DNA of 64,000 nt from Monosiga brevicollis MX1 (GCF_000002865.3 NW_001865048.1:770098-834097), one strand, 5' to 3'; counted from the stretch's first letter, positions 5,936 through 39,600 are shown. Program-made: numbers and translations. The notes: generated by a model from the sequence alone, not told the origin.

Positions 5936-6168
5936 CAGTCATCAGTCTTTTTTTTTTGTCTGAACAGCTGGTTGGTGGAGTTGATCGCGGCGGTTGGCAG
6001 TGGCGCGGGTGAGGGGGGGGACAATGCTGAGCTGTGTTGCGCTGGCAAGGACATGGAATGAGGACCATTGGGTGGAATTAAGGGCGGGGGTGTTCTGACT
6101 GGTGTATGGATGGGGTTTGCTCGCTTCATAGATTGGTCGTGTGCTTCATCGCCATATCGGGGAGTGCG

Positions 6169-7570
<1,402 letters not shown>

Positions 7571-7891
7571 TTTGACTTGCCAGTTAGCCAACCGAACCTC
7601 CGATCTTCCCAGCACCCAGTCCCTGGTCCTTCTTCCCTCTCTCCCTATGCCTCGACCCGAGCCGAGCCAAGCGGCGAGCCCAAGTCTTTGTTTCATGCTA
7701 TCTGTGTTTTATGTGCGCGTGTCCGTGCCACAATGAACCCGCTGCCCCGTGGTGTGTCAGACTGTACAATACGACGCACCAACATCACCACGCTCTCAAA
7801 TGAGTCGTATGACTCGTTCACACACAGGCACACACACTCGCACGCACCCACCATCCAAAAGCAAAAGCAAAGGTCAGAAAGAAATAAAACT

Positions 7892-7942
<51 letters not shown>

Positions 7943-8038
7943 AGGGAAAAGGAAATACACTACATGTAAGCCTTGATCTCTTGTCACACACACACAGACG
8001 GCGTGCCTTTGGGCATTTTCGTACAGTAACGGATCGAG

Positions 8039-9349: not shown

Positions 9350-9713
9350 TCAAGCCGCAACCCCCGCTGGAGCTGCTGGCTAGCTAGCTAGCTAGCTAGC
9401 CAGCTAGCCACATTGCGCAGATGATGATGCCTTTTACTTTTGTTTTTCTACACTTGTAGACTCGCACCTCTGAGGCTGAATATCCCCCTCTCGTGCACAG
9501 AACGACTGCCCTCAGCCTGCGGGTACATGGCGCATGTCTGTTGCATCTCTTGTCTTGACCATCGCACGCCGCGCACCAAAGCGACCTGGCAATTGATCAT
9601 AGGTCGATTAAGATGCCATGCACGAGCAAAACACTCATTTAATAGCGAATCTACACTCTAATCACTGTCCTAGTAGTGTGGTAGGGCGTCAACGCCGCAG
9701 GATCGGCGGGAGC

Positions 9714-9745
<32 letters not shown>

Positions 9746-9747
9746 CC

Positions 9748-12700
9748 TCTATCCATGACCTGACAACCTCTGCTCTTCCTCCTCACACACTCTGCGAAAA
9801 TAATCGCTGTTCGTCGCAATAAAGGCTTCCACGTCCAGTCCCAAATCGTGAAAGGCGGTCTGTAAAGCCAGCAAGTCAACACGAGACACGTGCCAACCGC
9901 GGTAACAAAGCATAAATGAGAGCAATCAGGATGTCTTAAAAAGGACCACAGCGCAAGGGCACCACATCATGACATGCAACGAGCAGCGCCTGCGACGACG
10001 CACGTAAGCGAGCTGATCTACGTTGCGCACGCGAAATAGATCCTCTTTGAAGAAAGCATTCAGCTCTGTATCCTCACGAAATTGCAAAATGTCGTCCTTG
10101 TGCAGCTTGAGCAGTGCGAGCCCATAGCGAAACAGAACCTGTCAGGGACCCCAGAGAAACCAATACCATGCTTATGAGCATGAGGCAGGGCGCACATTGA
10201 AAAAAGAAAGTCAAAGACGCCGCACTAGACTCATGGGCGCAACGCTAAATGGATAGCACCACGTACGCTCCGGCCTTCGCACAAAAAGGCGTCCCAAATG
10301 CGCAGCACGACTTCAGTCGGCAGTGTGTTGACAAATGCCGTGAAAAACCTGAAGCACCGTCACGCGTCATCTGATTGAGCCGGGAAGAACGTGAAAAAGT
10401 AGTGCCCGCTGGCCTGCTGCCACCTACCAACTAAAACAGATGCGCTGCAGATCCAAGCAGTAATGTTGAAAATGGTCGTGCAACTCGGGCATCGTCTCCT
10501 TCACCATGGCTGCAGTAGCCAGGGCGCAAGCCAGAGATACAGACCAGGTCAGCTCTATGCGTTCTTTGAGCAAAGCAGAGCACAAAGCTGGAAAAGATGA
10601 ACGCACCCACAAACATGCTACGGTCCACGGCACAGCCCGTCATGGGAAAGTTGTAGTACTCAAACCGCATAATCTTCTCCACAATGGCATCGAGAGCGTA
10701 AAAGGCCCATTCCTCATTGAGATACAGCATGGCAAAGGCAACCAAGCGGTTGAAACCTTGAGTGTAGCCTAAGGGCAAAAGGTGACGACAGACCAACGGG
10801 ATCATTCCACCACAGGGTCCTGACATGGAACAGCAATGCATTCTACTGGCAATGACGTACCAATTCTGGGGATGAAAAAGGCAAAGGCCGTCAACACGCG
10901 CTGCAACGCGACCACGCTTGGCGCATTAAAGTCTTGGAAGAACACGTTGTTGGAAAACGTGCGCAGCAAGTCCAGCTGACATGGGTTGATGCAAATCACA
11001 TGAATGCCAAACACGCAGAGACCTCACCGAGCATCTGGTGGGCGCTGGAAGCGGGGGCTGAGTTGGAAGACGGTGTACCACGACGCTCAAATTCACCTTG
11101 ATCAACTCGGCGTACTCAAGTTGCTTCGTCGACTTGTGCTCAACCAATTTTTTGTAAAAGTTGTTGCCGTTGATGCGTCGAATGCCTGCGGTACGCGCGG
11201 CCACAAAATGCTTCCAGACCTGCCAACACGCCCAAGATACAGGTATTAGCATGCCTACGTAGTATTCCAATGCCCTGGTATATGTCGATCCTCACGTGCT
11301 GGCGCAGGTGCTGAGGGATGCCGCGCCGACATAGCTCGAGATGGGAAACGTCTGTGAGAAGCCGGGGTTCTGTTTGCTTGTTGAGTTGTGCGATCAACTC
11401 TTCCCACCTACATGGCACCAGAATTCCATAAGCACACCAGTTGAGCCAAATACAAGGTACGACGCGATACCAAAGTCGGTGGGATCCAAACAGGAGGCAT
11501 ACTCGTCATGTCGTTCCAGGTCGTTGGCCGTGACCTTTTCAGCATCCACGCGAAAGGCTCGGATTGCCCTCTACGCGACCAGGGAACCGTAGAGTGAAGC
11601 ATGGGCTCGGATGAATAGAAGAGAAACCATCGACGCGCGCACAAACGTGCGAAAGGAAAACGAGTTGTGTGAAGGGAAGCAATTATTCTTTTTTTTTTTT
11701 TTTTTTTGAAAGAATCACGAGTGTGGCGAGCAACTGGCCAAGAGAGAAGGTGAAATGAGCACGAGGTTGCAAGACATACCGATTCCAGTGGCCGCGTCTC
11801 AGAACGAGGGGGCACATCCGCAACCACGGCAAAGCGCATGAACCCATATTGATCATAGTCAGCTTGAAGTTGTGGTTGAACAGCATATGCGCCCACCGTC
11901 TCGGCCTGTGCTGCTGCCACGTGCTGGACGTGCTGACCTTCATGCACGCGTGGAAACTCCTCAAAGTCACCGCTGGTCAAGCGAGCACTAATCACCGTGT
12001 CATGCTTGTATCGACGCATTAGTTCGGCCATATTATGAACAATGATCGAGCCGTCCAACGGTGCAGAAGCCGTGGCCAGGTGACGAGCGTCGGGGCTTAT
12101 GGCAAGTCCAACAACGCCATCCGTATGTAGGCATAGCCGAAGAAGCGGGTGCTTGGTGCGGGCATGCCAGGCATAGATGGCACCCGAGGTGCCACCGGCC
12201 CAAACAACGTCGTCGTGACGCTTGACACAAGTCAGGCCCTGGCACTTTACGAGCCAGGTGAGAAGCCGACGGCTGCGCCGTGTATCAAACACCTGCATGG
12301 CTGATGACTTGGGCGAGCAGCACCACAGCTCGCCATCAAGTCCAGCGCATATCAGGTCGACAGGCAGGGCCAAAATAGGATGGCGGCGAGGCCGCTTGAA
12401 GCGGTTTGAACTCACGCCGTCATCCGCAGCAGCGGCAAAGATTTGGCCCAAGGCGGTTAGTGGCACGCTAGGGATGGGCAAATGTGGCATGCCATCGTCC
12501 TCGGCATCACTGGAAACATTGCTACTGGCGGCACTCTCGGCCGCACTTCCAGCGGTGCTATCAAGGCGGCCTGGAACCGTGGTAGCTCCAAACGGATTGG
12601 GACGGGGCGAGCGGCCGAGTGTCGACGCAGGCGATGCTGAGAGCCCTTCGGCGGAGCGGAGGCCAGGGATGGGAATGGATGAGACTGTAGGTGTCGTGGT

Positions 12701-21719: not shown

Positions 21720-23510
21720 GCTCGACGAGCAATGAGTCACGAACAGGGCCTTAACCCATGTCGATCTGCTGAGGTGCTGATAACCTTGCTCGAAAGTTGG
21801 AGAGCGTAGTAGAGGAGTCCTGTTGCAGAATCAAGCTTCGTCTGAATCGAATACCAAGGCGCCCACGCCTAGGTGGTTTGCTGTTGGGGTCGGCATGGCC
21901 TGCCAGTCAGGATCTGCCCGGTAACCCTCCACTAGCTGGGGGTAGAGGTGCCAGGGTCCAATACGTCTGGAGGCCAAGCACGAATTTGATGCTAACAAGA
22001 GGTCGCTGGAAAGTTGGAGCATGGTTGTGCTGCCTGCGATGGCACGCCTTCTGGGTTGGGGACCGGGTAAGTAGAAGATGCAGGCTCCCCGACCCCGGGC
22101 CCTAGTTTTTTGGGCACGCCTTGCTCTGGTGGTCGTCGGCGAAGCAGTGGTAGCAAAGACGATGTTTTCGAGCAAAGTTGTATCGAGCTTGCTTGTCGCT
22201 TTTGTCGAGCTGGGTGAACTCTTCAGAATTGCGGAGCTTGGCTGGAATACGGAGAGCTGGACGGCTGCGGGAGCTGGCGGCACGCTTGCTAGCCGGCTTG
22301 GGTCCGGAGGCCGAGCTAGTCGTCGGCCCCTTGGGCGCCGTCCGGTTGCTTGGCACGCTGAAAAGAATATCACGAGTCGGGACGTAACCATCGAGAGCTT
22401 CTGCCACGACTTTAGCCAAAGTCGACGCCGAACCAGATGTAGCCTGGTGTGCCGCAGTGGCGAGGCGCTCCACCAGTCGACTGCAATTGCACTGGCGCTG
22501 GAGCTTGCACAGCATCAGGACCTTGGTCAGCATGGTGTATTCAAGCGGTTCGTGCTGAAACATGCAATCCACCGCCTGTACCCACTCATCGAATTCATCG
22601 AGTCGAGTAAAATTGCTCGTCGAAGCGTCCAACATTCGGGCCAGGGCGGCGACGCCCAAGTGAAAGCCAAACTGTTTGCGCAGGTGGGCTCGAGCCTCTT
22701 CCAAGGACGTTGGGGTTGTGTCCGGACTTGCAAAGCCGCGGTTCAGGGTACTCTCGAGGAAGGGTACCATGACATTGTCCCAAAGAGGGTACCAGGCCGT
22801 TGCTAGGTCTGTCTTGAGCCGGTGGCCCATGAGCATGGTCACGGCAATGTAGGCCGAGAAATAGGGATCAAAGCCAAAAGTCTGCAGGCGTTGCGACTTC
22901 TTCTGGACTTTAGTTCGGAGGCCCTCAATCACGTGCGCGGCAAGCGGAGCCGTTGTGGTCGATGGGTCATGAACAGGTTCCGCGGCAGATTCCGTATCAG
23001 GTTTCGTGTCAGGTTTCGTGTCAGGTTTCGTGTCAGGCTCCTCCAATATTCCTTTGCCAAGGCACCGAATTGGCTGGTGGGTGTGCATGACGATGTTGAC
23101 CAGCGCAAGGAATGGGAAGGGCGGTCGGGCGATCGAAGTTTTCAATCACTACCATTTCAGGCTCCAGGGCGCCTGGAGGCCAGTTTTGGGTTGCGAGGAA
23201 GCGCGTAGGTTTGAGGAAGCGTTTCGAGAGCCGTCCGTCGCTCCGTCCCGAAAGCTTTGATGGTGTCTTGAGGTCAGTTGAACCAGCTGCGATCGGCAAG
23301 CATTCACAATGACCAGACCAGGCTGTAGAGCCGAGGATAGGGAAAGTGCAACCCACGACCGCAAAGAGAGAACAGTAGTCACAAGCTTATCGCCCCAAGG
23401 CAGGTGCCAGGGATCGCGGGGTCTTAGTGGGGTTCACACGTTTCCGTTTCGACGAACGCTGGGTGTGTGCGAAAGCAGTGGGAGTGCTCAAATGCGTGGA
23501 AGGAGCGCAA
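21720..23510 (-). mobile_element. Decayed/internally deleted LTR-retrotransposon-like (Ty3/gypsy-like) segment: gag ORF plus pol remnants
   Basis: Intronless gag-like ORF. Downstream frameshifted fragments QRPLVSIKF (protease-like start), LVEGYRADPDW and TGLLYY (pre-integrase linker-like). No RT or integrase core found. Confidence 0.6.
22102..23145 (-). CDS. Gag-like protein with C-terminal CCHC zinc knuckle
   Basis: 347-aa uninterrupted ORF ending RLCYHCFADDHQSKACPKN* (CX2CX4HX4C); start codon uncertain. Confidence 0.75.
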   Translation of the reverse strand: MKTSIARPPFPFLALVNIVMHTHQPIRCLGKGILEEPDTKPDTKPDTKPDTESAAEPVHDPSTTTAPLAAHVIEGLRTKVQKKSQRLQTFGFDPYFSAYIAVTMLMGHRLKTDLATAWYPLWDNVMVPFLESTLNRGFASPDTTPTSLEEARAHLRKQFGFHLGVAALARMLDASTSNFTRLDEFDEWVQAVDCMFQHEPLEYTMLTKVLMLCKLQRQCNCSRLVERLATAAHQATSGSASTLAKVVAEALDGYVPTRDILFSVPSNRTAPKGPTTSSASGPKPASKRAASSRSRPALRIPAKLRNSEEFTQLDKSDKQARYNFARKHRLCYHCFADDHQSKACPKN

Positions 23511-23512
23511 AC

Positions 23513-23818
23513 AAAAGCTCAAAATGAAAAGCTGCCTTGCTTTGAGATGCAGCCCACATCACCAGCTCAGAACCCAAGAAGATTCAATTAAAAAGATATA
23601 GATAGCATGGGAGAGCTCTCTTGGTCAAAGCTCGAGAACAAACAGTTCCTATGTTCATGGCGACTCGGTCGTAATTGGGGACGAGAAAGGCAGGACCATC
23701 ATCCCCACATATATGCTAGAATCATGTGGCCTCATTTTTAACGGTAAAAGGGGTTCACACGTGTACTTTTGGCTCGTCGGGATCTCGTTCAGGCTGCCGA
23801 CTCCACAGGTAACGGATG
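23513..23818. repeat. Direct repeat copy B; overlaps the last codons, stop and 3' flank of the receptor gene
   Basis: Matches 21449-21717 and contains the HPLPVESAA* stop at 23789. Confidence 0.95.
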
Positions 23819-26800
23819 TGACAAGGAAAGCTTTTTGAGCAAGGGCGGTTGGAGCTGCAGTAAGGCTGCGGCTGCTTCCATGGTACGGCGCCGTGGCTGC
23901 AGACGGTGTCCGTTCACAGTCACGAATCCATCCGTGTCTTTATCCAACAAGTGGTGCACTACATTATGACTTCGCAACAGAGACAAAGCATATGATTGGC
24001 CCTGGCGATGCCGCACCAACCAGGTTCCCTCTTGGTCAGCTTGAGAGAGGCGTGCCTCGGTCTCTTCACGCGAAATCTTTCCGTGAAACCATGGTTGTGC
24101 AGTCAAGGCTTGATGTTCGCGCACACAGCTGGGAAGATCTTCGACAAGCCAGCGCTCAGAGCGCAAGGGGGCCAGACAAGCGCGTCCAGGCTCGCGTTGC
24201 AGGCGCAATAGCACCTGGCTCAGGGTTTGGGCCCCCGGTATAGGGTTTTGATTAAAGCGCAACTCACCACCCTGCTCATCCAACACATAGTGGGCAACTT
24301 TTGCATCGCGAACGAGCACCGATGCCACGAAAGTGTCATTGTTCGTACTATGGCGCAAGAAATAAGAGCCAACAGGCCGGTCGAGCAACATGCGCTCCAC
24401 TTTTTCGCGAGGAAGGTCTTCCACATATGTGGGATGAGCCTGCACTTGAACAGCGAGCGGAATCTCGCGATCAGTAAAGCCATACACCTCTTCTTCAACG
24501 TCCAAGGTCTTGCTTGCCCCTGATGCCATCTGTACAGGTCCTGACTTGAAAACGCCGTACTCAGCATTGGCGTCAAGGTCATTCTCACCAGAAATAACCT
24601 CCGGTACTGTTCGAGGAAGTGAGCTGGGGACATCGTAGGTGTCTGTTGATGAATCCTCGCGTGGTGCCAAATTTGAGTGTGGAGCATCAGGAACGGCATA
24701 GGCCACCTCGAAATACGCTCTGCGACGTATACCCTCGTTTGGCTCCGAGTAATCAGTTGAAGCGGGTGGATCGGAGCTCAGCACAGCGTACGGCGTATCA
24801 TAGGTTGACTGGATGGAGAAATCATCGACAATGGAAGTGGCATGGCTGAAGGTTTGATGATGGGAGGCCACAGGCTGCTGATATCCATCGATATCTTGGG
24901 CTAGGGGCATGGACATGGCCGTCTGGTCTCGGGCATTGGGCGAATCATACAACTCCTGCTGCCCCAAGCCGCCGGGTTGCTGATAGCCCTCGCTATCTTG
25001 GGCAAGGGGCATGGTCATGGTCACGGGCATGCCGGTCTGGTCTTGGGCATTGGGCGAATCATACAACTCCTGCTGCCCCAAGCCACCGGGTTGCTGATAG
25101 CCCTCGCTATCTTGGGCAAGGGGCATGGTCATGGTCACGGGCATGCCGGTCTGGTCTTGGGCATTGGGCGAATCATACAACTCCTGCTGTCCCAAGCCAC
25201 CGGGTTGCTGATAGCCCTCGCTATCTTGGGCAAGGGGCATGGTCATGGTCACGGGCATGCCGGTCTGGTCTTGGGCATTGGGCAAATCATACAACTCCTG
25301 CTGCCCCAAGCCACCGGGTTGCTGATAGCCCTCGCTATCTTGGGCAAGGGGCATGGGCATGGCGGTCTGGTCTTGGGCATTGGGCGAGTCGTACAAGCCC
25401 CATGGCTCCTCATCAGAAGCTACCTCATCAAGGCTAAAAGTAAATAGGCGGTCGGTATCACTTTCCAACGAGTGCGCGCCGTTGCCCTGTTCAAGTCTCA
25501 TTCGTTGCTTGCCATGCTGCCGGTCGTTAGGACCAGCGCTGGCATCCTGATCATCGATTGTCTGATACATTTCAAGCGAACTCTTTCCCGACATACTAGG
25601 CCTGTAGGTCGGGTTGATCATCATCGCATGCGTTTGTGGCTCGATAGGGCCAAGAGGGGTTGCCAGTTTGGCGGGATTGGTTTGCTGGCGACGACGAACA
25701 AGCACCACGCTAAGAATGACTGCCAACAGAACAACTGGGATTGCAACTGCCATGGCAAGAGTTGTGGCTGCGAGGCCAGAGCTTGCCGCGGTCGATGTGT
25801 TGGCGACGTCTACATCAGCCACCTGCCCATTGGCGCTCAAGCGATCCCGCACACGCAAGACGTACGCTGTTGCCGGTAACCACGCCAACGTGTTCTGGTC
25901 TCGAACGCAAATATAAAAGTTTGTCATCTGCTCTGCAGCTAACCAGCGTCGCTGGAGCCGGCGGCGTTCGGTCGTCATGCTGACCAGTCGCCGGGTACCG
26001 GGCTCCACATTGAACATGGACGTGTCATGATCATCGGCTGCCACGCGCCCAACCACAAAGACGTACGGTTCTCGTAGCACGTTGCGTAGCATGGTTTCAA
26101 CTTCGACTGCAGTCGGCGCCGAAGCCAAGGGCAGGCTCATCGTCACCCGCACAAGGTTGGCGGCGTCTGGGCGGGAGAAAGGTTGCACAGTGAACAGCTG
26201 GACTGCCGTGGCCGTGTTTCCAAACTGATCACGACAGGTGTAGTTAACGGCATGGTCGCCTGGCGCTTCAACATCCACGTTGTTGAGTCCAGACACACGC
26301 ATATATACGGTAATGTTGCCGTCGTGGTTGTCCAAAGCCTCTGCCCAGCTCACGGGCACCCGGGTGCCGAAGATGATATCTGCTGCGTGAGGGTGGACTG
26401 AAATCACGGGGGCCACCTGATCTACAACTTTGACCCAGCGCGAGGCGCTGGCAGTGCGACCGGCCCCATCGGTCACGTCATATTGCACAAGGAGCTGCGT
26501 ATTCACGGGGAAGGCTGCAGCAATGGCGACAGACCAAGGAATGCCGCTGGCTTGCAGGCGTCCTTCTGCTTGCGCCTCACGTTGCGACACTATCCGATTC
26601 CAGCTTTGATTGGAAGCCGGTAAAAGTTCTCCCGGCTCGGCACCCGATGGCACCTGCTGCAGCAATTCTCCTTCAAAATTGTAAACGCTGATAAGGTAGC
26701 AGAGGTGGGCAGTCAAGTCACCGTCAAGCGCATCATTGGCCGTGGTATCATCAAAAAAGCGCGCGTACTCATCACCAAAATTGACGAGCTGGACATCGCC

Positions 26801-29800
26801 TGCAGTGGTGTTGATTGTGGGACTCAACGTATCTGTGATTGTGACCGAGCGCTGTGCCGTGGCCAGATTGCCCGCCTCATCCGTTGCCGAATATGAGACC
26901 AAAAACACACTGCCTGCGGGCGCGTGCGAGTCGACCTCAGTGAAGGATTCCTTGGACAGGCGCGCCCAGCGCTGTGCTTGGTAGGCATCAGCGGCGGCAG
27001 ATGTCAATACGGACCAATCGGGAGTGGCGCAGCTCACACTGTGCGGGCTCTCCCGTCCTAAAGATGCAAGCTGAATCTCCACAACATCTGCGTCCAAGTT
27101 GCCGTCAACACGATCCGAAGCGGACCACGGCTGCTCGTCGACCCAAGGCGTCCCGCCGGGCCAAGTGCTGTTTGTGACGTTGATGATGGGAGCTGTTGTG
27201 TCCACCAAGATGACGTTTAGAAAACCAAAGCCGGTGTTGTCATTGTTGTCCGCGACGCTTAGCTCGATAACAGCACTGAATGGCGTGAAGGGCGGCTGCA
27301 GGGGCAAGTTGCTCACATTGCTTTGCAAGCGTTTTTGCAGGCCGCTTTGAACGTAGTTGTCTGCCAAGGTATACCAAGTATTCTGCAGCACGTAGACTCC
27401 CTCTACAGGGGCAGCCTCCAGGGTCAAGACATCCTGGGTGACGTCGACGCTGGGTGCAGTGGTGTCCACGACCGTAATAATGCGCCCCACCGAGGCAATG
27501 TTTCCAACCACGTCACGGGCAGAGTATGTGAGAGAGTAGTTGCTTGGTACACCTTGAGATGGCCTTGACTCATAGGACCCCGAAAGGCTGACTGCCACTG
27601 GACCATCCAGCAAGTCTACAGCCCATGCGCCTGGGTCAACAAAGTCCTGGCCTGCTTCCAAAATGAACGGGTTGCTGCCATTGAGCTGAAGATTTGGGGC
27701 CCGCGTATCCACGATCAACAGCGTCCGTGTCGTTGAGTTGATATTTCCCGAGCCGTCCATGACGGTGTAGGTAAGCAGGATGCGAGTCCCGCTCGGTACT
27801 GCGGTGCTGATCGAATCTGGTGCCGGGTTCACAGTGACAGTATTTGAAAGGTTGCCTTCAAAAATGTCCCAAGCTCGCCAGCCAGGTTCTGAGTACTCAA
27901 AGGAGGCCTCAACCTGAACAAGACTTGATCCACGCAATTCAAGTGCCTATACAAGGCGAAAACCAGGAACACCGCATAAAGCCAACGAGTCAAGAAACGT
28001 CAGGGCAAGACTGGTAATGGGCTGTGGAGGTGCCGCTCAGCTATCAAAAGACACACAAAACACAAAACACAAAACAAAACAAAACAAATAAACAACGCAC
28101 CGGTGCCAAGGTGTCGGATATGACTACAGTACGCTGAACGGGTTCGGCCCATAGACCTTGATTGTCAGCCCTTGTTGCCTGGTAAGTAATCAGGCTGGTG
28201 CCCAGCTGAGCTGTGTCAATTTGTGAGGAGGCATCACTTTGTACACCAACCGACGCATCAAGAGCATCATACAAGTCAGCCATCGGGTCAATGAACGGAA
28301 GGCCGGCTTCTTGATGCATGGGGTTGTCACCCCGAAGGGTGATGTAAGGCTTTTGGCCTGACAGCACTTCCACGGTCAAGATGGCCCAAGCAACGTTTCC
28401 AGCAGAGTCCTGGGCGGTGTAATTGAAGGTCTGCACGCCTTCTTGAGCTACATAACATGCATCATACAGTGCGACGTAAGGACGTGTGCGCGCGTGCGTG
28501 TGTGCGAACACCATCTGAGATATTCAATAGTTCATCCGCAGAGAATAGGCAGCCAAGTGGGCATACCAATATCTAAACTATCATCCGTATTGGTTTCCAA
28601 GGGACCATCATAAGTGTCAGAGGCCGTGACGGCCGGCAGCGTGAAAGACATGTTGAGGACTTCAGTAACCAAAGGTGAACTTGGAACATGTATGACAGGC
28701 GGAGTAATGTCTGATTTGACATGTAAGGGCGTGCGTAAGCAAAGAGGGCCAGACAGCCGAAAGCAGGCCCAGAGGCAACGGGGTCTCCTTGGGCACACCG
28801 AAAGTCACGTGGCAACCAGCGCCAAACAAATAAGAGCTGGGGTAATACCGCACGTACCACGACACGCCGTGCGGTTGGATAGAACCGTCAGGCCAACGGC
28901 ACACGGCCAGCAGTCACCACTCTGCGAATTGGGCTGATATGTCCCATCTAGGCAGGTTTGGCAGTAGGTGGCCTGCTGGGGCGCAAAGGAGCCTGCTGCA
29001 CAGGGCTGACAGTCGGTATTGGCGGGTTGGGCAGAAAACTTGCCCGCTTCGCAGCTCTTGCAAGAAGCTTGGGCTGGTGCATCGCTATACAGGCCGGCAC
29101 CACACGGCAGGCACTCGGACACCAGCTCACTGCCCCGGTACTTGCCTGCCTCACAGGTGAGACAAACGCCCGGTGTACCGGGCTCAGAAGATAGAAAGGC
29201 GCCTGAAAATTAACAAAGCAAGGCAGAGTCATGGTATCATGGTAAGGATGGTAACAATGCCGATTCGACATCCCGTCGCGAAGCAATCGATCGATGGGCC
29301 ATGCAAGCGCGGCGAACGGAACGTTCAGATTCATGAACATACCTGCATCACACTGCTCACAAGAAGTTGCTCCCATGGTAGAGGTGTAATATCCCTGATA
29401 CGCATCGCATTCTTCAGTAGTCAAGTCCAAGCAAAATCAAAAGCAGTCAACGGTTGAGCGTGGAATGACATGCGTATCCTCGTTGAGGGATTTACCAAAT
29501 GATGGAGGGAAGTACTTGAGCGAATAAGCAAAGGGCAAACTGCCCACCACGTGCTCATACCTTCGCAGCTTGTGCTCGCTGGCACTGAGGTGAAGGTGCC
29601 ATAGCCACAGACCTGGCAGCCCTGGCCCACGCCGATGCCCACCTGACCAGCCGGACAGTCTAGTTGCAACGTACAAGCCAATGTTGTGAGAAAGAAATTC
29701 ACGCCTGATATATAGGCAGGGGAGCCTAATGTATTGTTTGTGGAGCCGGCAGGTGAAGCGACTTGAAACAAGGCAGTATCAGACCAAGGCAGGTGTCCGA

Positions 29801-32800
29801 GGTATGGTTGGAGGCGTTCAGATATTGGCCTGAGACATGGCACAACGGCGACACGAACAATGTGATTGTGAAATCACTTTCACGTTCCGGGCGCAAAGAG
29901 GAGCGTGTTTGTCAAGCAGGCCAAACCGTTGGGACAGGCAACGCAAATGCGGTCCGCTGTGGTAGAACTGGGATTGCTCACGCGGCTGTTGGCATTGCAC
30001 AAGTTGGTTTTTGCTGTGCAGGTGGTTCCCCTAAAGTCATTTTGGGATTGATAATACCCTATTATGCATGCCGCTTCAGTGAGCCAGCGCACACATTGCT
30101 TTCTTGCGGCTGGGAAATTCTGATCGGAAAAAAAACAAAAACAAAAAAAAAACAAAAAAAACAAAAAAAAAACAAAAAAAAAAAAAAAAACAAAAAAAAA
30201 AAAATAAACAAGCTCGTAAAGCTCGAATGGGATAAACGAGCTAGCTTCCGGGTGCCGTGCTAGATGGTGGAGGGCTACCATGCTTACCTGAAGGACAGGA
30301 TGCACAAGAATTGTCGGCGGAGGTGGAGGTGGAGAAAACAAGTGCAAAGCCAGCCCCGCAAGTCGTGCGCTTGAGTTTGCATGTCGTCTCGCTGTGCCAG
30401 GCTAAATCTTGATACCGGCCAGCCTCACATGCGACACACGTGTTGTCAGCAGTGTTTGTACCCGAAAGCGCCAGTGCATAACCAGCTCCACAGCCAGCGA
30501 GCTTGGGCTTGCAGCTGGTTTCACTGTGCGTTGTCAAGTCCTGAAAGAACAAAATGCCCTCGCACGCGATGCAAGCATTGTCCATGGTGTTGGTCGCAGA
30601 ATATTCCAACCGCTGGCCAGCACCACAAGTCGTGGACTTGGGTGTGCATGTTGTCACGGTATGACCAGACTCGTCGATGAACTCATTCTCGGCGCAGGGA
30701 ACGCATTCGTTGTCTGCCGTAAGGGAATTGGAGGCGACGAATCGATGTCCGGAGGCGCAACTCGCCCTCTTGGTAATGCAGGATGCGAACACATGTTGCG
30801 TCGCTTCCTGATATGTGCCTGGTACAAAAACAAAGAGGGAGCGGCACAAGGTGGCGATTGATTGGTTTGAACGAGAGTTGAGTGCAAAGTCAGGGAGCGT
30901 TTGCAGACTGCTGCCTTGCAAGCAAGCCAAATATTGAGATTTACCCGCAGGGCATGCCGCACAGCTGTCTTGGTCAGAGACGAAATATTGCCCTTGATTG
31001 CAAGTGACCGATGCTGTTGAGAAGAAAACGACGTGGCCGAGTCCCAAGAGGTGGCGTGAGTCAATGCATACCAAAGTCACATGAGCAGACGGGTGATAGG
31101 GTTGCTTACCAACAGTGCATACGCCGCTCTTTCGAGCTGGAAGAACGACGGGACAATTGCCAGAACACGTCGCCTCTGAAAACGGTGTGCAAACGGCAAT
31201 AATTTTAGACAGCACATGGACCAGGTGCAGCTTTGAGATGATGGGCTCACTGATATGCATTACGTACGGTTGCAGTTGTGGTCACAATTTGAATCGCAGC
31301 TGTCCCTGCAATTAGCACCCCACCATGCGCAGTTTGAATCGCACCATTCGTTGCAATCTTCGTTGCAGCTGGAAACCGAGTCGCAGCTGCAAGGCGGCGA
31401 TGGATGCAACATGGGATGAGCCATCCGTCTGAACGGTTTGAGCTGTGCGTCGAAACCTGTTAGCCCTTGCGCGCAGCATACTTGGCAGGTATGTTGTCCT
31501 TGCTCACGCCAACAACGCGGCGGGCACGGGCTTCAGGTGTCAGAGTCAGAACGTTCTTGTAATCAGAGGCAAGATGCCAGAGCAAGCTGTCCACGGGACG
31601 CTGGGGAATTGGCCAAACACACACACACACACACACAAGAAAAAAAAAAAAAAAACCAAACAAGAAAAACCAGGAGGCGTAACGTGTAACGTGTGAGAGT
31701 GGCATCTCGACAATCAGGACCCCAATCAATACTTCACCCCACACTGCTTCTTTTGGGCATTTGGAGAGCACGCGTACGTACTGGAGAGAGTAAGGTTGCT
31801 AGGCGCAGCATATCAGCGGCCAGCTCTGGAAAAGTTTGGCTGGCCACAATGTCCATTTGTTCGCACCACTCGGTCCAAGCGGCGGGTTGGGTATGGTGTT
31901 GTTGCAGGCACTGGGTTGTCAGTCGGTCACGCAGAGTACCACGTTCGCTTTTGAGTTGATATGTCATGTGGTAACTGGCAGTGCTGTTGTCGGTCCAAGC
32001 GTGATGGACCAGGGCCCGGGGTAGATAAAGCAAATCACCCGCATGGAGCGTCAAATTCAAGCACGACATGTTCTGCAACTGTTCGTAGCTGTATGACGTG
32101 CAGCCTGTGCAGGCAAAATGGGTTCATACAAAATTGAGGGGCATGAAGCTGGACATCATCAGGTCTGAGGTCAGAGCCGCACCCGTTGTGACCGGGCGGC
32201 AGGAAGAGGGCAAAGTGCAGCTGGAAACGGCCATGCAGACAACCTTGTGGCAAAGCAAACCCACCTTGGAAGCTAGAACGTTCGAATTCTGCGAGAAGAG
32301 CCTGCGCGCCGTGGGTGCAGTTTTGACAGGTAGTATTGGTGGTCGGCACGCATATTTCCCAATGTTTGTGACCGGCGAGTTGATGCACAAAGACGTCCCC
32401 ACCGTCAGTGTGGGGGTCCAAGGCACGGCCACCGGGCATTGTGGCGTATAAATGTTGGGTCACGTCTGTGTCGAAAGCTGCGCGCAAAGCGTTCTGGAAA
32501 GGGTCAGCTGCAAGGGGAGCAAGGCTGTCTCGCAAATCTTCGTCTAGCTCTTCTGGGTAGAAGATGGCCGATGTACCAGCTTGACGAGCAAAGAGCTGTG
32601 AGAAGAGTTGGCTCCAGGTCGCTACACGACTGTCCATGGCAAAGCGAGTGCCGTTTTCGCGAAGACGGAGGATGTCGTTATCGCTCAGGAGTTGCAAAAG
32701 CAGGGGTTCGTCAAGGAGGTTTTCCAGCTGGGTCGTGAGCTGGGCGGCGCTAGCTTCATCCGAGGGGCTGGCTCGATAGAGCTGATGCGTGGCCTGGTAA

Positions 32801-33036
32801 TTGGAGGCAAATGTCGCCCAAGGTCCGAGGCGGGCATCTAGCATGGATGGCCATGTGCGCGGAGGCAGCGTGTAATGGGACCATGACCAGTTCAAGTGGG
32901 GACGGTCCAAGCCACGATCGTTCGCCTCGACCAGGCGCCCTAGCGATATGCCATGAGCTCCGGGTACATCAGCGAGTAGCAGAGCCAAGGCCACCACGAC
33001 AACTCGCGTCGAAGCTGCATGGCTGCCGCTAGCCAT
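23789..33036 (-). CDS. Giant type I receptor: signal peptide - JmjC/cupin-4 oxygenase - Cys-rich repeats - HYR/DUF5011-like Ig repeats - TM - Tyr-motif repeats - 2x SH2; about 15 exons
   Basis: Signal VVVVALALLLADVPGAHG. JmjC LYAT...LDPHTDGGDVFVHQLAGHKHW and LHAGDLLYLPRALVHHA. CxxCPAGxY repeats. DTxAP...YSARDVVGN repeats. TM LAMAVAIPVVLLAVILSVVLV-RRR. SH2 GSYFLRHS and WFHGKISR...GTWLVRHR. Every intron junction I traced is phase-compatible. Confidence 0.8.
24873..25398 (-). repeat. 114-bp (38-aa) coding tandem repeat, about 4.5 copies, two Tyr motifs per unit
   Basis: LYDSPNAQDQTGMPVTMTMPLAQDSEGYQQPGGLGQQE; period of 114 seen at 24974/25088/25202/25316. Confidence 0.97.
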
Positions 33037-33312
33037 GTTCACCGGCTCGTGAGATGTGTGCCTGGCAGCGGCAATTGCGAAAAACGTCCAACCAGCTTGC
33101 CGATGGCCCGGGGCAATGTGCCGCGCCGAGCCTTCAACCAGCCTCCAGTTGCCTTTGCCGGAGCAACACGCAGTACCACAGCCAGCAGGTCAGAGGTATG
33201 GATGGATAAAGTAGTGATCGACCAATCTATTTTTTTTCTTCTTAATCCAGACCAAGGCAGAGCTGCTGACAGTCAGCCAGTGCCTGCGCAAATGCGGGTG
33301 CGCATGAAAAAG

Positions 33313-33317
<5 letters not shown>

Positions 33318-33391
<74 letters not shown>

Positions 33392-33652
33392 GTCGCGTGC
33401 GCGCGCGCGTGCGAGAAGAGAGAAAAAAAATATGGCAGCGAGTCTGACATTTGCACAACCATGTCTGATGCGTGTGTGTGGTAGATTTGGCTTGTGTGCC
33501 CCTTTGAAAGGGGCTTACATGTATAACCTGTGCAAAACTTTGGAGGAAGGAGGAGTAATTTCGCTTTTGATGACATCAGAGAGAGAGAGAGAGAGAGAGA
33601 GATTGGTAAGAGAGAAAATTTAAAAAGAGCAGAGACACAAAGGAAAATTGAA

Positions 33653-33734
<82 letters not shown>

Positions 33735-33790
33735 TTTGAGAGAGAGAGAGAGAGTGAGAGAGAGAGAGAGAAAGAGTTTGAGAGAGAGAT
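33318..33790. repeat. (GA)n tracts with GTTT interruptions upstream of the receptor gene
   Basis: Three GA runs; reverse complement of the (CT)nCAAA motif. Confidence 0.95.
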
Positions 33791-34297
33791 GGCATTGTAT
33801 CGAATTGGAGTTGTTGCAGCCTTAGGGGGCACGTGCATGGTGGCGTATGGCGAAGAACAAAAAAAATTGCGAAACAGATATTTGGAACGCATGTTGAGAA
33901 CATGTTCGAGCTCCCTATGTAGGGGGCGACTGTGGGCTAAGGAAGACGTGGGTGTGCGGAATGGTTTGAAAGAACTAGAGTCAAAAGGAAATAAACTGGC
34001 GGACCAGTGATGGTTTCGAATGCGAGTATGCTTAAGGGTTCTTCTATGGAAGGCAACGGCACGTGTCGGGGCCGAGTCACAGGTAGTGTAAAAAACAAAA
34101 ATTCCAAGCCTTCTCCGTTGAAAAAAAAAACAAAAAAAAAACAACAACAAAAAAAACAAACATGCAGCAGCCACAAATGCAATCAGTCCAGATGGGGGCT
34201 AGAAGACGGAGGCTGCTTATCACGGCGTTTGTAGTATGAACAAATGAGCAGGGCCTGGCACCGTGCAGGGCAAACTATTAAGCTAGAGATAATATTC

Positions 34298-35995
34298 TCA
34301 GCACGATGCCGATTCCGGCTCCAATAAAGGTGCGTTAAGGTCGTCACCCTGGGCCTGCGCTGGCCTCGACAGCTCAACTGGTGCCGGCGCCTCGTGGCCA
34401 ACGGCGTAAGAACCGAGGTACAGGAGGGGACCAAACAAAAGGGTGGCCCCTACGCTTGCGCCCACGTCAATGTACAGGAGCGTATTCAAGCGTGCAAAAT
34501 TATCGTAGGCAATGCCAAGGGCCTTGGTGATGGGGGCCGTGATCCAGCCAGCGGCCGAGTCACCCACATCCATAAAGGCAATGTATAGTGCGTAGGTGGT
34601 TCCAGAGGTGCCATCGTCCACGGGACAGGCCTGCGTGGCCAGCACCAACCCGGCCACAAGCGCCAGCTCGGCCACGGCTTCAGTGACAATTGTCGTGCCT
34701 ATGGCGTAGAGCAGGCTGTGGCCTTCCGTGCCTGCAATCTGGCCACCTATCCAGGGCGACCACATCAACGAGACGAGCGAGGAGAGGCCACTGCACACCA
34801 GGAAGATCGTCACCAGACGCGAGCCTTGCATGCGCGATAACGTGGTGTAGAAGGCCGTCGAGGCTAGGAGAGCTACGCACGAGGACACGATCTCCAGCGT
34901 CTGAATGTAGCATTCGTGCTCGGGCCACACGGCATACTGAAAGCTGTACAGGGCATCTGCCGCCGTAGGGGTTGCGTTCATGACAAATAGCACCACGGCC
35001 GGCCATATGCCGGTCACGGACGCCAACACGCCACGCATCGTGACGGTACGCTGGCGCAGCTTCAACAGCACCAAGCCCAGCACCACAGCGTTGATGGCTA
35101 AGACGACGTAAAGGAAGATGAGCCAGCGCGCATGGTTCATCAGGTCCTGACACGCACTCCAGACGAAGAACAGCATCAGCGAGGGCAAGATCAGCTCCAC
35201 TGTGGGGAAGCGTCCATTCACGCGCCCCGACAAGGGATGCCCACCATTGATGGTGAGATCTGATGAGTACGCAATTGCGTCTGAATCATCCTCGATCACA
35301 CTTCTCTCCTCCTGAGGCCGGTCAGCTTTGTTCAACATCAAGGGCGTGGCGTCCGCCTTGGTGCCCACGCGCGGATCCGGCACGTAGAAGCCCAAAAACG
35401 CCACGCAAATGCCCACGAGCCCGTTGAACATGAGAATGGAGCGTGAATTGATGTGCGGCTGGCTACCGTGGCACGGGTACATGGGCAGGCCCACCAACAA
35501 GGCCACCAGGGTGGCCAGGTTGCGCACCGTGGCGGCCGCTGCCTGCAAGTGTCCAGCATTGGCCATGTTGCGCTGGGCACAGTCAAGGAGGGAGAGGCCC
35601 AGCAACAGTTCAGCAAAGGCATTGGTGGTGGTGCGCATCAAGACCAAGCCATAGGCTCCACTGGTGGTATGCACAAAGTGGGAAATGATGAGCCAGCTCA
35701 CGGCGGAGAGCGCCAGGCACGCAATGAGGTAGGGCTTGCGGCGTCGACCCGCAATGGGCAGGCGCTCAGATATCCAGCCATACAACGGTTTGAGCGTCCA
35801 GGGAATAAAGATGCAAGCATAAAAGTTTGACTGGTCTGCCACTGGCATTTGCAGGTCATTTTGCAGCCAGTCCCCAAAGGCCGTCATGGGAAAGGATTCG
35901 AGAAAGGAGGTAAAAAAGTAGAGCACCAAGATGGACCAATGCAACCCATTGGTGTTGATGCGAAAACGCGCCAGCGCGCGCGAAGCCACACTCAT
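34298..35995 (-). CDS. BT1 family folate/biopterin transporter (MFS), intronless
   Basis: Signature PWTLKPLYGWISERLPIAGRRRKPYL; ATQACP..SGTTYALYIAFMD; about 12 hydrophobic segments. Confidence 0.9.
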   Translation of the reverse strand: MSVASRALARFRINTNGLHWSILVLYFFTSFLESFPMTAFGDWLQNDLQMPVADQSNFYACIFIPWTLKPLYGWISERLPIAGRRRKPYLIACLALSAVSWLIISHFVHTTSGAYGLVLMRTTTNAFAELLLGLSLLDCAQRNMANAGHLQAAAATVRNLATLVALLVGLPMYPCHGSQPHINSRSILMFNGLVGICVAFLGFYVPDPRVGTKADATPLMLNKADRPQEERSVIEDDSDAIAYSSDLTINGGHPLSGRVNGRFPTVELILPSLMLFFVWSACQDLMNHARWLIFLYVVLAINAVVLGLVLLKLRQRTVTMRGVLASVTGIWPAVVLFVMNATPTAADALYSFQYAVWPEHECYIQTLEIVSSCVALLASTAFYTTLSRMQGSRLVTIFLVCSGLSSLVSLMWSPWIGGQIAGTEGHSLLYAIGTTIVTEAVAELALVAGLVLATQACPVDDGTSGTTYALYIAFMDVGDSAAGWITAPITKALGIAYDNFARLNTLLYIDVGASVGATLLFGPLLYLGSYAVGHEAPAPVELSRPAQAQGDDLNAPLLEPESASC

Positions 35996-36399
35996 GACGT
36001 TCCGCGACTGAGTAGAAGAACTGTTGGAACGAGGCGGGCTAATCCGAGCTCGTCGACTTGAAGATTGTCGCCACCCGCGCCTCGTGTCACAAAAGCGGCA
36101 GCTTGCCTGACGGTTCCGCAGCTGCACTCCGGATGTGCTGATAAGCGCGGCTCAGTGCTAAACTCAAGAACATGGAATACCAAACAGGCCTATACACGGA
36201 AGCGCAAACAATCAACAGGCTCCACCAAGCCCAAGCACAGGAACTACCCCGGAGAGCGCGCGTGTGTGTGTGTGTGCGCGCACTCAAACTGAGCCCCTGT
36301 CACGCTCGAGTCAAAAAACAACTCAAGTCAGCTCTGATGATGACACGTGAACCCCATTTCTTTTGCTCCTCTCTTATAAAATAAAAAATGAAAATCTGA

Positions 36400-36639: not shown

Positions 36640-39600
36640 TCACGGTGGAGTGCGTTTTGTGTACTTCACCTGACGAAAGAGGTGCTGCAAGTGGGCGCGT
36701 CGATCGGCACGCTCACTGGCAATTCGCTCGTCCTGCTTTCGAGCAAGGGGCAGGCGAGTTAGAAGCGTGCTCAGTGATTGACACAGCACATCCAAACGCG
36801 CTACGGGGCTCATGTAGACGGGTACTGGATCGGGCAACGGCTTCCGGGGGGCAAAAAGGCGTTGTTGGGCCGTGCGCAGACGATCCTGCTCCACTTGTGC
36901 GTGAGCATCGTGTACCTGCTGCCGAAGTCGAGCACGCCGGGCCTCCTCTTGTGTCCACGCCAATTGGCGTTCAGCAAAAGCTGTTTCTGCTACTATCCGC
37001 TCCTCTTCCTGAGGGGAGCTCACTTCGGCAGTCAATGGGCTTGGCCACCAATCCAAGCGTGTGCGTAGTAGATCCACCGCAGCAGCCAGCGTAGTGCAAC
37101 CGGTGTCGTGCTGCTCAAGATGAAAGGTGGCCTCCACTTGTGCATCGACCCGCGATAAGTCGGCTCCCTCAGCCTCCCATTGACTGGTGGTGATGGCGCT
37201 GCCTGACAGAGAGGCCACCTCTGACAGAGCCTCGGTGGGCGCTCGGCGTACCAGACGATAGTGCCGTTGCTGGCCCTCATGCACAACAGACAGAATAAAG
37301 TGGTCATTGGTCCGCCGTCTTGGGACACTGCGCACCAGAAATTTACCCTCGATAATGGGGGGCGTGGCCAGCAGCTCTTCTGCGCGCTCTTGATTCAGTG
37401 ATGCAAAGAAAAAAGCCGGCATATCGGGACTCGATGCAGGGCGAGCATCTGTCGGTGGTGTCAACGGCCGCTGTGGACGCAGCTCAGGACTGATGTCCGG
37501 CAGCGAGCCAAACCACGTCGCAGCGTAGTCGCGTTCCCACCGTGCCACGGAAGCCGCGGCGGTCCGAAGGGCTTGACGTCGGGCTCCATCGTCAGCGGGT
37601 GGGGTGCAGAGCGCCGCAAAGCGAGGGCCCACGGCAATCAACATCCGCCGCTGATGGGCAAGCGACGATGAGGAGCCGGTGTCCAAAGATGCGAGAGCTG
37701 AGCGCTCTTGCTGAAGGGCAGCAATGTGGGCCGAAGCTTCGTCTGGTAAAACGCCAAGTTTGGATGAAGCTGAGGCCAGCACCTGGAGCGCCAGGGCGGC
37801 ATCGGGCACCACGTCCATGTAGCCTCCATCCTGGTGTAGCGGCTCTGCCACACCACTGGCTTGCAAAGGATCAAGGGGTTCAATGTCCTCTGCATTGTCA
37901 TACTGACCATCCGTCTGGTTGTCATTCTCTTGATGTCCAGTATCGGCCGTGATTGCCACCATAGGGGCCGCTGTCGTTGTCGTCGTTGTCGTGGTCGGTG
38001 TTGCCGTTGTCGGTGTCGGTGCTGGTCTCGGTGTCGGTGTCGGTGTCGTTGTCGTGGTCGGTGTTGCCGTTGTCGTCGGAGCAGATGTGGTTGCTGAGGG
38101 CAAAGTGCCAACTGAAATCCGCCGCACCAACGGCACCGGCCACCAAGGATGCTTGGACTGCAAGAGAACAACCACCTCGTCCAAAGTCACAGCCTTGGTC
38201 ACCTTCTTATTCACAACAAAAGTGCCACCGGGTTCAGATTTCTGCACGAGATGATGTGTGCACTTGCCGTGATAAAGCACGGAGATAATATATCCACCTC
38301 CCTTGGAATGTCGTAAGAGATAGACACCATCCATCCCCGCTGCTTCGTGTTCCACCAGGGCAGCTGCTTGATCCTTTGACAGCACGCCGTGGACGTCTTG
38401 TTCAGCTCCCGCTGCTGGCAAAGGTGCTGCCGCTTTTGCCGCAGTTCTCGCATCCGGCAGAATTGTGGGAGGGTGTCTTGATGGTTCAACCGTGGTTGTA
38501 GCTTTGGGGGCAGAAGATGAGTCGATCGGCGATACAGGAGGCGCCACGGCCTTGATCAGAGGTACGGGCCAGAATGGCTTGGCGTTGCGCAAACTCTCCA
38601 CCACCTAACAGCCATCATGCGCAGTTTAAGATGCTTCACTTGCAATGGAGGCCTGCGCAAGCATTCGCCCATTGACCCTGCAATGGCTTGGCTATGCGGT
38701 CATTCACGTGTTGCTGTGCTCTTGCGCAAGGCTGGCCCATCAGTCAAAAACTCACCTCGCTTAAATTGCTAGCTTCGACGGTCCCTTTGTTTAAAGCGTA
38801 GGCGTGGCTTCCGGTCTTGATTAGCAGATGGTGGGTCGGCTTGCCTTTGTAAACGACAGATATGACCGATTCATTGAGGTCTGCGTTTGCCGTGTTGGCT
38901 CGTGCTCGGATCAGAAAGGTTCCATCCTCGTTGCCGCAGGCCTGCAAGCGAGCTGCAGAGCGTGGTTGGGTGTGAGCAAGGAGTGGCTGCTTGTCCCAAT
39001 CGCCGCCCTCCCATGAACAAGCTCCGTCACCCTGTGCCGTGAGTGCAGTTCACACCTTCCGCTGTGGCTTTGTCCAAGTTGCCATGGTAAAAATGGCGAA
39101 ATGGCGATCCTTGCAAAGCTGGTGTGAATGCCGACGTGGGGCTTGCCGGCATGATGGTGGCGGTGGTTGGGGGTGCAGTGGAAGATAGAGCTGGAGGCGC
39201 CAACTCTTCAACACGGGCAGGAAGGGCGGGAACCGAAGCAGCATCCGGCGTGTGGTGAACGAGGGTGGTTGACGATGCCTGACGCACCCATGATATGCCG
39301 TGCACGGCGTGCTAGGGATGAGATGCGAGCTCGAGGCAGCTCAGCCGTTGTGTGCGTGCGTGCGTGTGTGCGTGTGTGGATGGGGCACGACCCACCTCTG
39401 TCTCCTCATCTGATTGAATCAGCTGTTGGAGTGGTACTGGCCACCAAGGGTGGGCAGTCTGCAGCAGCTCTGCAATCTGCTCCAACGAGGTGGCAGTTGT
39501 TGTGGTTTGGTTGATAGTGAAGGGGTGGCCCATCTCCATGCGCGTGCACAAGTGATGCGTGGGTTTGCCTACAGCAGAACGAGCAGACGTGAGGTCCTGC

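Follow-up and report, generated by a model that had tools for sequence, protein, structure and literature searches.

The window analysed here is a 64,000 nt stretch of the Monosiga brevicollis MX1 genome (GCF_000002865.3, NW_001865048.1:770098-834097), and harbours on its minus strand a gene at 23789 to 33036 that is transcribed and spliced as a single unit. Its product is predicted to be a 2445-residue type I membrane protein with a JmjC oxygenase domain at the outer tip and two SH2 domains, but no kinase, on the cytoplasmic side. The features of the gene, with coordinates counted from the first letter of the window, are as follows.

23789..33036 (-), entire coding region, in which 15 exons are separated by 14 GT-AG introns; 2445 codons and a stop
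32950..33036 (-), start codon and an N-terminus resembling a signal peptide, residues 1-29 (a charged n-region, then a hydrophobic core, with small residues ahead of the predicted cleavage site), from hydropathy and sequence
31484..32949 (-), JmjC module, residues 30-404, exons 1-3: N-terminal extension, double-stranded beta-helix (DSBH) core and predicted C-terminal helical extension, from Pfam, MINA53/NO66 alignments and the fold of a relative, P0001
32404..32412 (-), codons of the putative HxD iron ligands H209 and D211, from alignment to the HYD of MINA53; present in 19 of 19 family members
32365..32367 (-), codon of K224, candidate 2-oxoglutarate (2OG)-binding Lys, aligned to the 'EKHW' Lys of MINA53; 19/19
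31968..32006 (-), codons from the putative distal iron ligand H291 through the strand-8 H303 (HxT motif), from alignment to NO66 'IHQA...HLT'; each 19/19
31601..31781 (-), intron of 181 nt (GTACGT...CCCCAG) holding an in-frame TGA at 31734-31736, from record lengths, GT-AG ends and unbroken protein homology
28709..31483 (-), Cys-rich region on exons 4-13 (residues 405-897), in which a CxxxC-rich segment precedes TNFR/GCC2-GCC3/Ephrin_rec_like-type repeats, from Pfam, Cys counts and 10 RNA joints
25787..28708 (-), Ig-like (DUF5011/Bact_surface_Ig-like) and HYR stalk, residues 898-1780, from Pfam; the homologues are bacterial DUF5011/HYR proteins and P0001
25697..25762 (-), single transmembrane (TM) helix, residues ~1789-1810, with RRRQQ after it on the cytoplasmic face, from hydropathy and sequence
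24617..25429 (-), tail rich in Tyr motifs, 14 of them YxxP sites such as YDxP and YQQP, from sequence and Tandem Repeats Finder (TRF)
24167..24427 (-), N-terminal SH2 domain, approximate bounds, FLVR-type Arg present (YFLRHS), from Pfam and motif position
23837..24097 (-), C-terminal SH2 domain, approximate bounds, FLVR-type Arg present (WLVRHR), from the best Pfam stretch and alignment to the C-terminal SH2 of SYK (E 2e-15)

Gene structure and domain layout

A series of long exon-like open frames runs along the minus strand from 33036 to 23789, in sequence of 51-61 % GC with short introns, as fits a compact eukaryotic genome. When joined, the 15 exons lead from an ATG at 33036 to a stop at 23789-23791 over 7338 nt, giving 2445 codons with no internal stops, and GT..AG ends are found at all 14 introns traced. 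Transcript evidence comes from assembled contigs of the runs X3, X4 and X6, whose status as RNA was a guess that the splice joints themselves support. Minus-strand GT..AG joints (listed as CT..AC) are present for 12/12 introns in X4, 10/12 in X3 and 8/12 in X6, and the pieces of X3 record 4 reveal a 13th (27945/28100). Run X8 contains none of the 12 joints and has an unspliced piece spanning 28100-29053, and was treated as DNA-like for these reasons. A single X4 contig (record 9, 2852 letters) spans 28567-32982 and links JmjC exon 1 to exons of the Cys-rich and Ig-like parts. The listed contigs end at 33018 and 23788, which places the ATG (33019-33036) and the 5′ and 3′ untranslated regions outside the RNA cover.

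The joint of the 14th intron, 31601-31781, is unlisted, as it lies within a masked repeat; in two introns of the gene, long low-complexity tracts of poly(T)/poly(A)-rich and (GT)n sequence are present at 30122-30217 and 31609-31669, so that the region is masked and one splice joint hidden. Should donor 31781 remain unused, an in-frame stop would follow exon 2, and the locus could then comprise two genes, a secreted JmjC enzyme ending at TGA 31734 and a separate downstream receptor, with the RNA contig being a chimera of overlapping transcripts, given that contigs may merge adjoining ones. The lengths of the records argue otherwise. In X4 record 9, the stretch 30817-32264 is represented by 696 letters, compared with 877 if 31482-32103 were contiguous, and the deficit of exactly 181 letters equals the length of the intron, demonstrating that it has been removed and the JmjC exons thereby fused to the rest of the receptor. 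X3 record 5 (1328 letters) is similarly too short for the unspliced form, so that records in two runs demand the loss. In addition, exon 3 keeps the frame and is homologous to contiguous sequence in P0001 (XP_001750724.1 / A9VDD4, also from M. brevicollis), with a blastp alignment that is unbroken through the exon 2/3 junction (166/446 identities, 37 %, E 8e-95); colinearity with P0001 extends over residues 59-2439 at 32-42 % identity. No start or signal peptide is evident for a separate receptor within 31260-31798, and open reading frames (ORFs) marked complete from the transcriptomes of two other species, Salpingoeca infusionum and Didymoeca costata, likewise combine JmjC with receptor domains. 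On the strength of record lengths, unbroken homology and fusion in other species, the two-gene reading was rejected as extremely improbable, and close to refuted. The receptor is one transcribed gene, and its model is solid.

With regard to domain content, the Pfam family JmjC_2 (PF08007, cut-off 22 bits) matches in two parts, at 33.9 bits in the ORF 32035-33189(-) and 28.8 bits in 31734-32123(-), the module being interrupted by introns 32105-32264 and 31601-31781. The Cys-rich region, with 8-15 Cys per 100 residues and its cysteines concentrated at residues 400-900, matches Ephrin_rec_like (46.2 bits), with NCD3G and TNFR_c6 also found on 28805-29209. The terminal exon of 1385 codons carries Bact_surface_Ig-like (DUF5011; 96.7 bits, three stretches), HYR (29.1 bits) and SH2 (66.5 bits, two stretches); no kinase family of Pfam matches this exon, which encodes the entire cytoplasmic part. 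Hydropathy identifies one N-terminal hydrophobic segment and one TM helix in the whole protein, with extracellular-type Cys-rich and Ig-like domains preceding the helix and the SH2 domains following it, whilst nearly all NxS/T sequons are N-terminal of it. Together, these properties predict a type I topology.

This layout agrees with an original prediction made from the DNA sequence alone, which had proposed a signal peptide, JmjC domain, Cys-rich and HYR-like repeats, one TM helix and two SH2 domains without an intrinsic kinase. Each of these elements was recovered by Pfam or hydropathy, including the JmjC, Ephrin_rec_like, DUF5011/HYR and SH2 profiles that it had named as checks. Its phase-compatible GT-AG introns and its single fused gene, as opposed to a JmjC gene ending near 31700, are borne out by the open frame, the spliced contigs, the 181 nt deficit and the colinearity with P0001. 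The iron triad (HxD...H) and 2OG Lys that it described as intact are likewise upheld, by the alignments given below.

Exon 4 (31268-31386 (-)) encodes a segment with Cys at every fourth residue (CxxxC), amounting to about 9 Cys in 40 residues, that has no Pfam match. At the corresponding position of P0001, the Cys cluster is shorter and spaced differently. This segment may be one of the 'Monosiga-specific domains' with conserved cysteines referred to in the text of Iyer et al. (2010; PMC2938197).

The JmjC head and the cytoplasmic tail

The motifs PHTD, GHKHW and VHHA occupy residues 208-211, 222-226 and 290-293 of the gene model. In both MINA53 and NO66, a Lys binds the C5 carboxylate of 2OG. 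Exon 1 aligns to MINA53 (4bxf, E 1.1e-5) over the HxD motif and the corresponding 'EKHW' Lys, and exon 2 to NO66 (4cco, E 0.026) over HxT and the distal His. When 19 N-terminal regions were aligned with MAFFT, each of the HxD motif, the Lys, the distal His and the His of strand 8 was found in 19/19 members, with identities to exon 1 of the window protein of 31-49 % across the 18 other rows, as calculated over matched stretches only. Three cysteines are also conserved, Cys229 (19/19), Cys259 (18/19) and Cys272 (19/19), with MINA53 having Tyr at the Cys229 position; such family cysteines fit adaptation to an oxidising compartment. The residues at the HxT position are HMT, the His of which is found in 19/19 members.

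The fold was modelled on residues 56-438 of P0001 (AlphaFold2, 28-row alignment) rather than on the window protein, with a mean predicted local distance difference test score (pLDDT) of 74.4, a predicted template modelling score of 0.71 and values of mostly 85-98 in the DSBH core. P0001 itself matches JmjC_2 at 53.5 bits. When the P0001 module was submitted to Foldseek, NO66 was returned first (E 4.8e-16, template modelling score 0.49), followed by MINA53 (2.1e-13), YxbC (5.4e-12) and YcfD (2e-10), with FIH (1.2e-10) ranked below them. Helices after the core appear only in the low-pLDDT part of this P0001 model. A homodimer prediction for the P0001 JmjC module scored 0.02, which speaks neither for nor against dimerisation. 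By sequence, motifs and modelled fold, the head is therefore placed within the MINA/NO66 clade of JmjC domains. The conservation of catalytic residues and family cysteines across the 19 members suggests that it is probably an active oxygenase.

The likeness to MINA53/RIOX2, NO66/RIOX1 and YcfD/YxbC comprises JmjC_2, the aligned HxD...H, 2OG Lys and HxT residues and the closest fold; helices following the DSBH core are predicted at low confidence. Solved structures of ribosomal oxygenases possess a C-terminal winged-helix domain; in the window head, the Cys-rich repeats begin only ~114 residues after the distal His, leaving no obvious room for one. MINA53, NO66 and YcfD/YxbC are intracellular enzymes that hydroxylate ribosomal proteins (as given in PDB entry titles), whereas the window head lies behind a predicted signal peptide, at the tip of a receptor, and carries the family cysteines. 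Judged by this signal-type N-terminus, the type I topology and the extra conserved cysteines, it is not an intracellular ribosomal oxygenase.

On the other side of the membrane, the tail is 632 residues in length and contains 24 Tyr, 14 of which are in YxxP motifs, compared with 3 YxxP among 51 Tyr in the ectodomain. The P0001 tail has 15 YxxP of 28 Tyr, indicating that this feature is conserved even though the sequence has diverged. Within the YxxP array of the window protein, TRF detects a 114 nt (38 aa) unit repeated 3.9 times (24914-25362), and the 97 % matches between copies point to recent expansion of the array. The SH2 pair is most similar to the tandem SH2 domains of SYK and ZAP-70 (E 2e-15 to 7e-12), and the FLVR-type Arg is kept in both domains.

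The likeness to Syk/ZAP-70 does not extend beyond the tandem SH2 domains, as the window protein has neither a kinase domain nor an immunoreceptor tyrosine-based activation motif; membership of that family was rejected because no kinase domain follows the SH2 pair, and membership of the receptor tyrosine kinases because there is no kinase match on the terminal exon. The YDxP/YQxP cluster may resemble the YxxP array of Cas scaffolds, which recruits Crk-type SH2 domains, but the window protein lacks SH3 and the Cas C-terminal domain. Unlike in Syk/ZAP-70 or Cas, the modules here are membrane-anchored and form one chain with a giant ectodomain.

Relatives and earlier descriptions

When exon 1 (257 aa) was used as the query of an exhaustive HMMER search, 94 proteins matched at E ≤ 1e-3, of which 10 reached E ≤ 1e-10 and one E ≤ 1e-30. 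Eleven of the matches are 750-4167 aa long, and in 10 of these JmjC lies near the N-terminus, with P0039 (~490-680) being the exception. Fifteen of the 94 were scanned with Pfam, all of which match JmjC_2 and nine Ephrin_rec_like; Sushi repeats occur in P0071. Amongst 13 long relatives, 11 have one hydrophobic segment in the C-terminal part, P0007 has two, the last just before its kinase domain, and P0052 has none above threshold. Most of the long relatives begin with a signal-like sequence.

P0001 displays the full architecture, sharing with the window protein a signal-like N-terminus, JmjC_2, Ephrin_rec_like, Ig-like/HYR domains, a TM helix, a YxxP tail, two SH2 domains and the same catalytic residues. 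The two differ in that the window tail carries the recent 38 aa tandem repeat, and their identity reaches just 32-42 %. A search with exon 15 amongst proteins of 761-2424 aa found no identical protein, the best relative being P0001 at 40 %; the full product, at 2445 aa, falls just outside that range. On sequence comparison, the window protein is an orthologue or paralogue distinct from P0001. Two word-index searches added no further members: exon 1 gave no fused homologue amongst proteins of 451-2000 aa, and residues 60-420 of P0001 returned only P0001 itself. A further M. brevicollis protein, P0007 (XP_001748073.1 / A9V5Y7), has an N-terminal JmjC_2, the same types of ectodomain (Ephrin_rec_like, HYR and Ig-like) and the same catalytic residues, but harbours a cytoplasmic tyrosine kinase domain (282.7 bits) in place of the YxxP array and SH2 pair. 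Its sequence makes it a possible partner kinase.

The named sources of the family are Monosiga brevicollis (at least nine proteins), Choanoeca flexa, Salpingoeca infusionum and Didymoeca costata, with the rest being metagenome or marine-survey fragments. As D. costata belongs to the Acanthoecida and the other named sources to the Craspedida, the family is present in both choanoflagellate orders. On present evidence, JmjC-tipped enzyme receptors are confined to choanoflagellates, the closest relatives of animals, in which alone they have been seen so far. With regard to the architecture search proposed in the original prediction, other choanoflagellates do combine JmjC with receptor domains, but among the 15 relatives scanned with Pfam the full form with SH2 domains was seen only in P0001 of M. 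brevicollis.

Proteins of this type were described by Iyer, Abhiman, de Souza and Aravind (2010; PMC2938197), whose text reports receptor-like MINA/No66 proteins in Monosiga with an extracellular JmjC domain and, within the cell, SH2 or tyrosine kinase domains, and with GCC2/3 Cys-rich, Ig, disintegrin or Sushi domains as ectodomain partners. Two roles are proposed there, cell-surface protein hydroxylases or redox sensors that signal via tyrosine phosphorylation. In a full-text search, no other paper contained three or more of the four terms 'extracellular JmjC', JmjC, Monosiga and 'receptor-like'; passages on choanoflagellate RTKC8 and RTKB2 in other papers mention Cys-rich and HYR ectodomains, but not JmjC or cupin. 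The window protein shows the traits of that class: a MINA-clade JmjC domain behind a signal sequence, a Cys-rich/Ig-like ectodomain, a TM helix and SH2 domains. Its full-length likeness to P0001 is one of homology to a member of the described type, as that type is set out in the text of PMC2938197. Both the architecture and the sensor idea were thus in print by 2010, in silico, according to that text, and the window gene adds one member.

It follows that the original prediction needs correcting in regarding JmjC ribosomal oxygenases as soluble intracellular enzymes, since extracellular MINA/No66-type JmjC domains are reported in Monosiga (PMC2938197). Its statement that no characterised protein has this architecture holds for experimental characterisation, none having been found in the literature, but not for computational description. 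Unlike the Monosiga-specific expansion described in the same text, the family as recovered here also occurs in Choanoeca, Salpingoeca infusionum and Didymoeca, and is hence no Monosiga peculiarity. The window further contributes a transcribed, spliced member with RNA support for the JmjC-receptor fusion, and the analysis adds catalytic residues that are invariant and extra cysteines that are found family-wide, together with a conserved YxxP scaffold tail.

Oxygenases on the far side of the membrane are not without parallel. ASPH and the collagen prolyl and lysyl hydroxylases are lumenal or secreted 2OG oxygenases. JMJD8 is reported to be an endoplasmic reticulum (ER) protein with a JmjC domain (PMC5684140), giving lumenal JmjC proteins a precedent, and a secreted JMJD5-like family and extracellular versions of FIH1 are mentioned in the text of PMC2938197. 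All of these share with the window protein a JmjC/2OG domain behind a signal peptide and likely protein hydroxylation; they belong, however, to other JmjC/2OG clades and do not form the tip of a receptor with cytoplasmic phosphotyrosine modules.

Proposed mechanism and its alternatives

The explanation that best accounts for the protein as a whole, and which is given about an even chance of being correct, is a competent lumenal or surface hydroxylase head joined to a kinase-less phosphotyrosine scaffold tail, with substrate engagement as the input. The head would be a catalytically competent Fe(II)/2OG-dependent protein hydroxylase acting in the oxidising secretory lumen, at the cell surface, or both, and its substrate would be a protein: the stalk of the receptor itself, another protein nearby on the surface or in the matrix, or a ligand that has been captured. 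Phosphorylation of the YxxP array of the scaffold tail would occur in trans, and the tyrosine kinase responsible would plausibly be either a paralogue that combines this ectodomain with a kinase domain, such as XP_001748073.1, or one of Src type. Phosphotyrosines on the same tail or on partner tails would next be bound by the SH2 pair, leading to clustering and signal relay. Engagement of a protein substrate by the head would more likely be the input than the O2 level itself.

A number of points weigh against this proposal. Besides P0001 and P0007, the chain of nine of 11 long relatives continues for only 19-136 residues beyond the last hydrophobic segment (248 in P0039), and Pfam detects neither SH2 nor kinase domains in any of the 11. 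The short tails of most relatives imply that the head needs no signalling tail in general, and that head and tail may be uncoupled. Little free Fe(II) or 2OG is to be expected in seawater, making turnover at the surface doubtful, such that it may be restricted to the ER or Golgi. Several of the counts, like the structure, were obtained with P0001 rather than the window protein, and the C-terminal helices after the core of the P0001 model are of low confidence (pLDDT 40-58). The RNA evidence consists of assembled contigs and not reads, with the spliced runs X3, X4 and X6 deriving from a single study. Full-text literature searches found no experimental study, whether enzymatic, of localisation or of phosphorylation, for any family member.

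Of the competing explanations, the original prediction and the redox-sensor idea of Iyer et al. (PMC2938197, as worded in its text) have in common a sensor of O2, iron or 2OG, in which the head would report their availability, by its turnover or by how far its cofactors are bound, and determine tyrosine phosphorylation of the tail. Catalytic residues that are intact and strictly conserved are in keeping with this, as is the linkage of the head to phosphotyrosine modules in the window protein and P0001, and to a kinase in P0007. Signalling tails are nonetheless missing in most family members, the cofactors Fe(II) and 2OG are expected to be in short supply extracellularly, and there is no evident route by which turnover could be transmitted across a stalk of ~1400 residues and one TM helix. 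A study on aerotaxis (PMC5122458) states that choanoflagellates are aerotactic, that the sensing mechanism is unknown and that parts of the HIF pathway are missing; it also states that dimethyloxalylglycine (DMOG), an inhibitor of 2OG oxygenases, caused no observable change in the aerotaxis of Salpingoeca rosetta. The latter is weak evidence, as it was reported as data not shown and concerns a different species, and the pro-drug may miss an external domain. A sensor in this general sense is considered unlikely. More improbable still is the specific version in which the head is a true extracellular sensor of O2 (or of 2OG or iron) and hydroxylation in cis or trans would control clustering, YxxP phosphorylation and SH2 docking. 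If a sensor it were, it would represent a fast, HIF-independent oxygen-sensing receptor that could underlie choanoflagellate aerotaxis, with oxygenase-based O2 sensing wired to phosphotyrosine signalling before animals arose. The absence of signalling tails in most relatives, the scarcity of Fe(II) and 2OG in seawater and the reported lack of an effect of DMOG are the reasons for which substrate engagement is favoured over O2 level as the input.

Alternatively, the head may be solely a maturation enzyme acting in cis, hydroxylating its own Cys-rich/Ig-like stalk or co-trafficking cargo in the ER or Golgi, with the tail being an independent adhesion or scaffold module. Cofactors are available in the secretory lumen, where 2OG oxygenases modify EGF domains and collagen. 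Cys-rich repeats always follow the head, with Ephrin_rec_like behind JmjC in 9/15 relatives scanned, and highly variable tails (SH2, kinase or short) are borne by a conserved head; in addition, cell-surface protein hydroxylation was predicted in the text of Iyer et al. (PMC2938197). This would leave unexplained why the enzyme is covalently placed at the distal tip of a very long stalk, and no hydroxylation motif was identified in the repeats, hence such a role is possible but unlikely. The head could also be non-catalytic, its cupin/JmjC fold serving as a ligand- or peptide-binding pseudo-enzyme of a receptor or adhesion protein, for which the scarcity of extracellular cofactors might be cited. 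Non-catalytic peptide binding by DSBH domains has a precedent in CENP-C, as noted in the text of PMC2938197. Invariance of the four catalytic/cofactor positions in 19/19 members, at 31-49 % identity over exon 1, would scarcely be expected unless metal and 2OG chemistry were under selection, rendering a pseudo-enzyme quite unlikely.

Should the head of the preferred hydroxylase-scaffold arrangement indeed be active, this family would constitute a new class of cell-surface or secretory protein hydroxylases, and its SH2 and kinase forms would directly link 2OG-oxygenase chemistry to pre-metazoan phosphotyrosine signalling.

Flanking regions

Directly downstream of the receptor stop, at 22102-23733, the depth of RNA contigs rises from ~18-34 to 489-11,075 (X3, X4 and X6). 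Within this region lies a 45 nt core (23458-23502), present as a single copy in the window but with many different flanks in each of the four runs; Rfam matches neither this core nor any other part of 22800-34200. The ORF 22102-23145(-) encodes a C-terminal CCHC zinc-knuckle-like motif, without a Pfam match, which suggests a gag-like retroelement remnant. The region is probably a dispersed, highly expressed repeat, and this would explain why the receptor contigs end at 23788.

On the upstream side, long (TC)n/(GA)n microsatellites are located at 33240-33940, just before the start codon, and no RNA contigs of X3 or X4 fall on 33276-34000. The next upstream gene is an ORF of the BT1 transporter family (34298-36151 (-)). 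Approximately 3.6 kb upstream of the receptor, a 654-codon ORF (36640-38604 (-)) contains two SH2 stretches (56.1 bits) and Thr/Pro-rich linkers. It was rejected as a paralogue of the receptor, since it has only one match, at the level of SH2 (32 % over 56 aa), and is a separate multi-SH2 gene. More distant ORFs comprise a member of the pectinacetylesterase/Notum family (8135-9349 (+)), an actin-fold ORF with a long N-terminal extension (45424-47592 (-)) and an RNA 3′-terminal phosphate cyclase (56675-57625 (-)).

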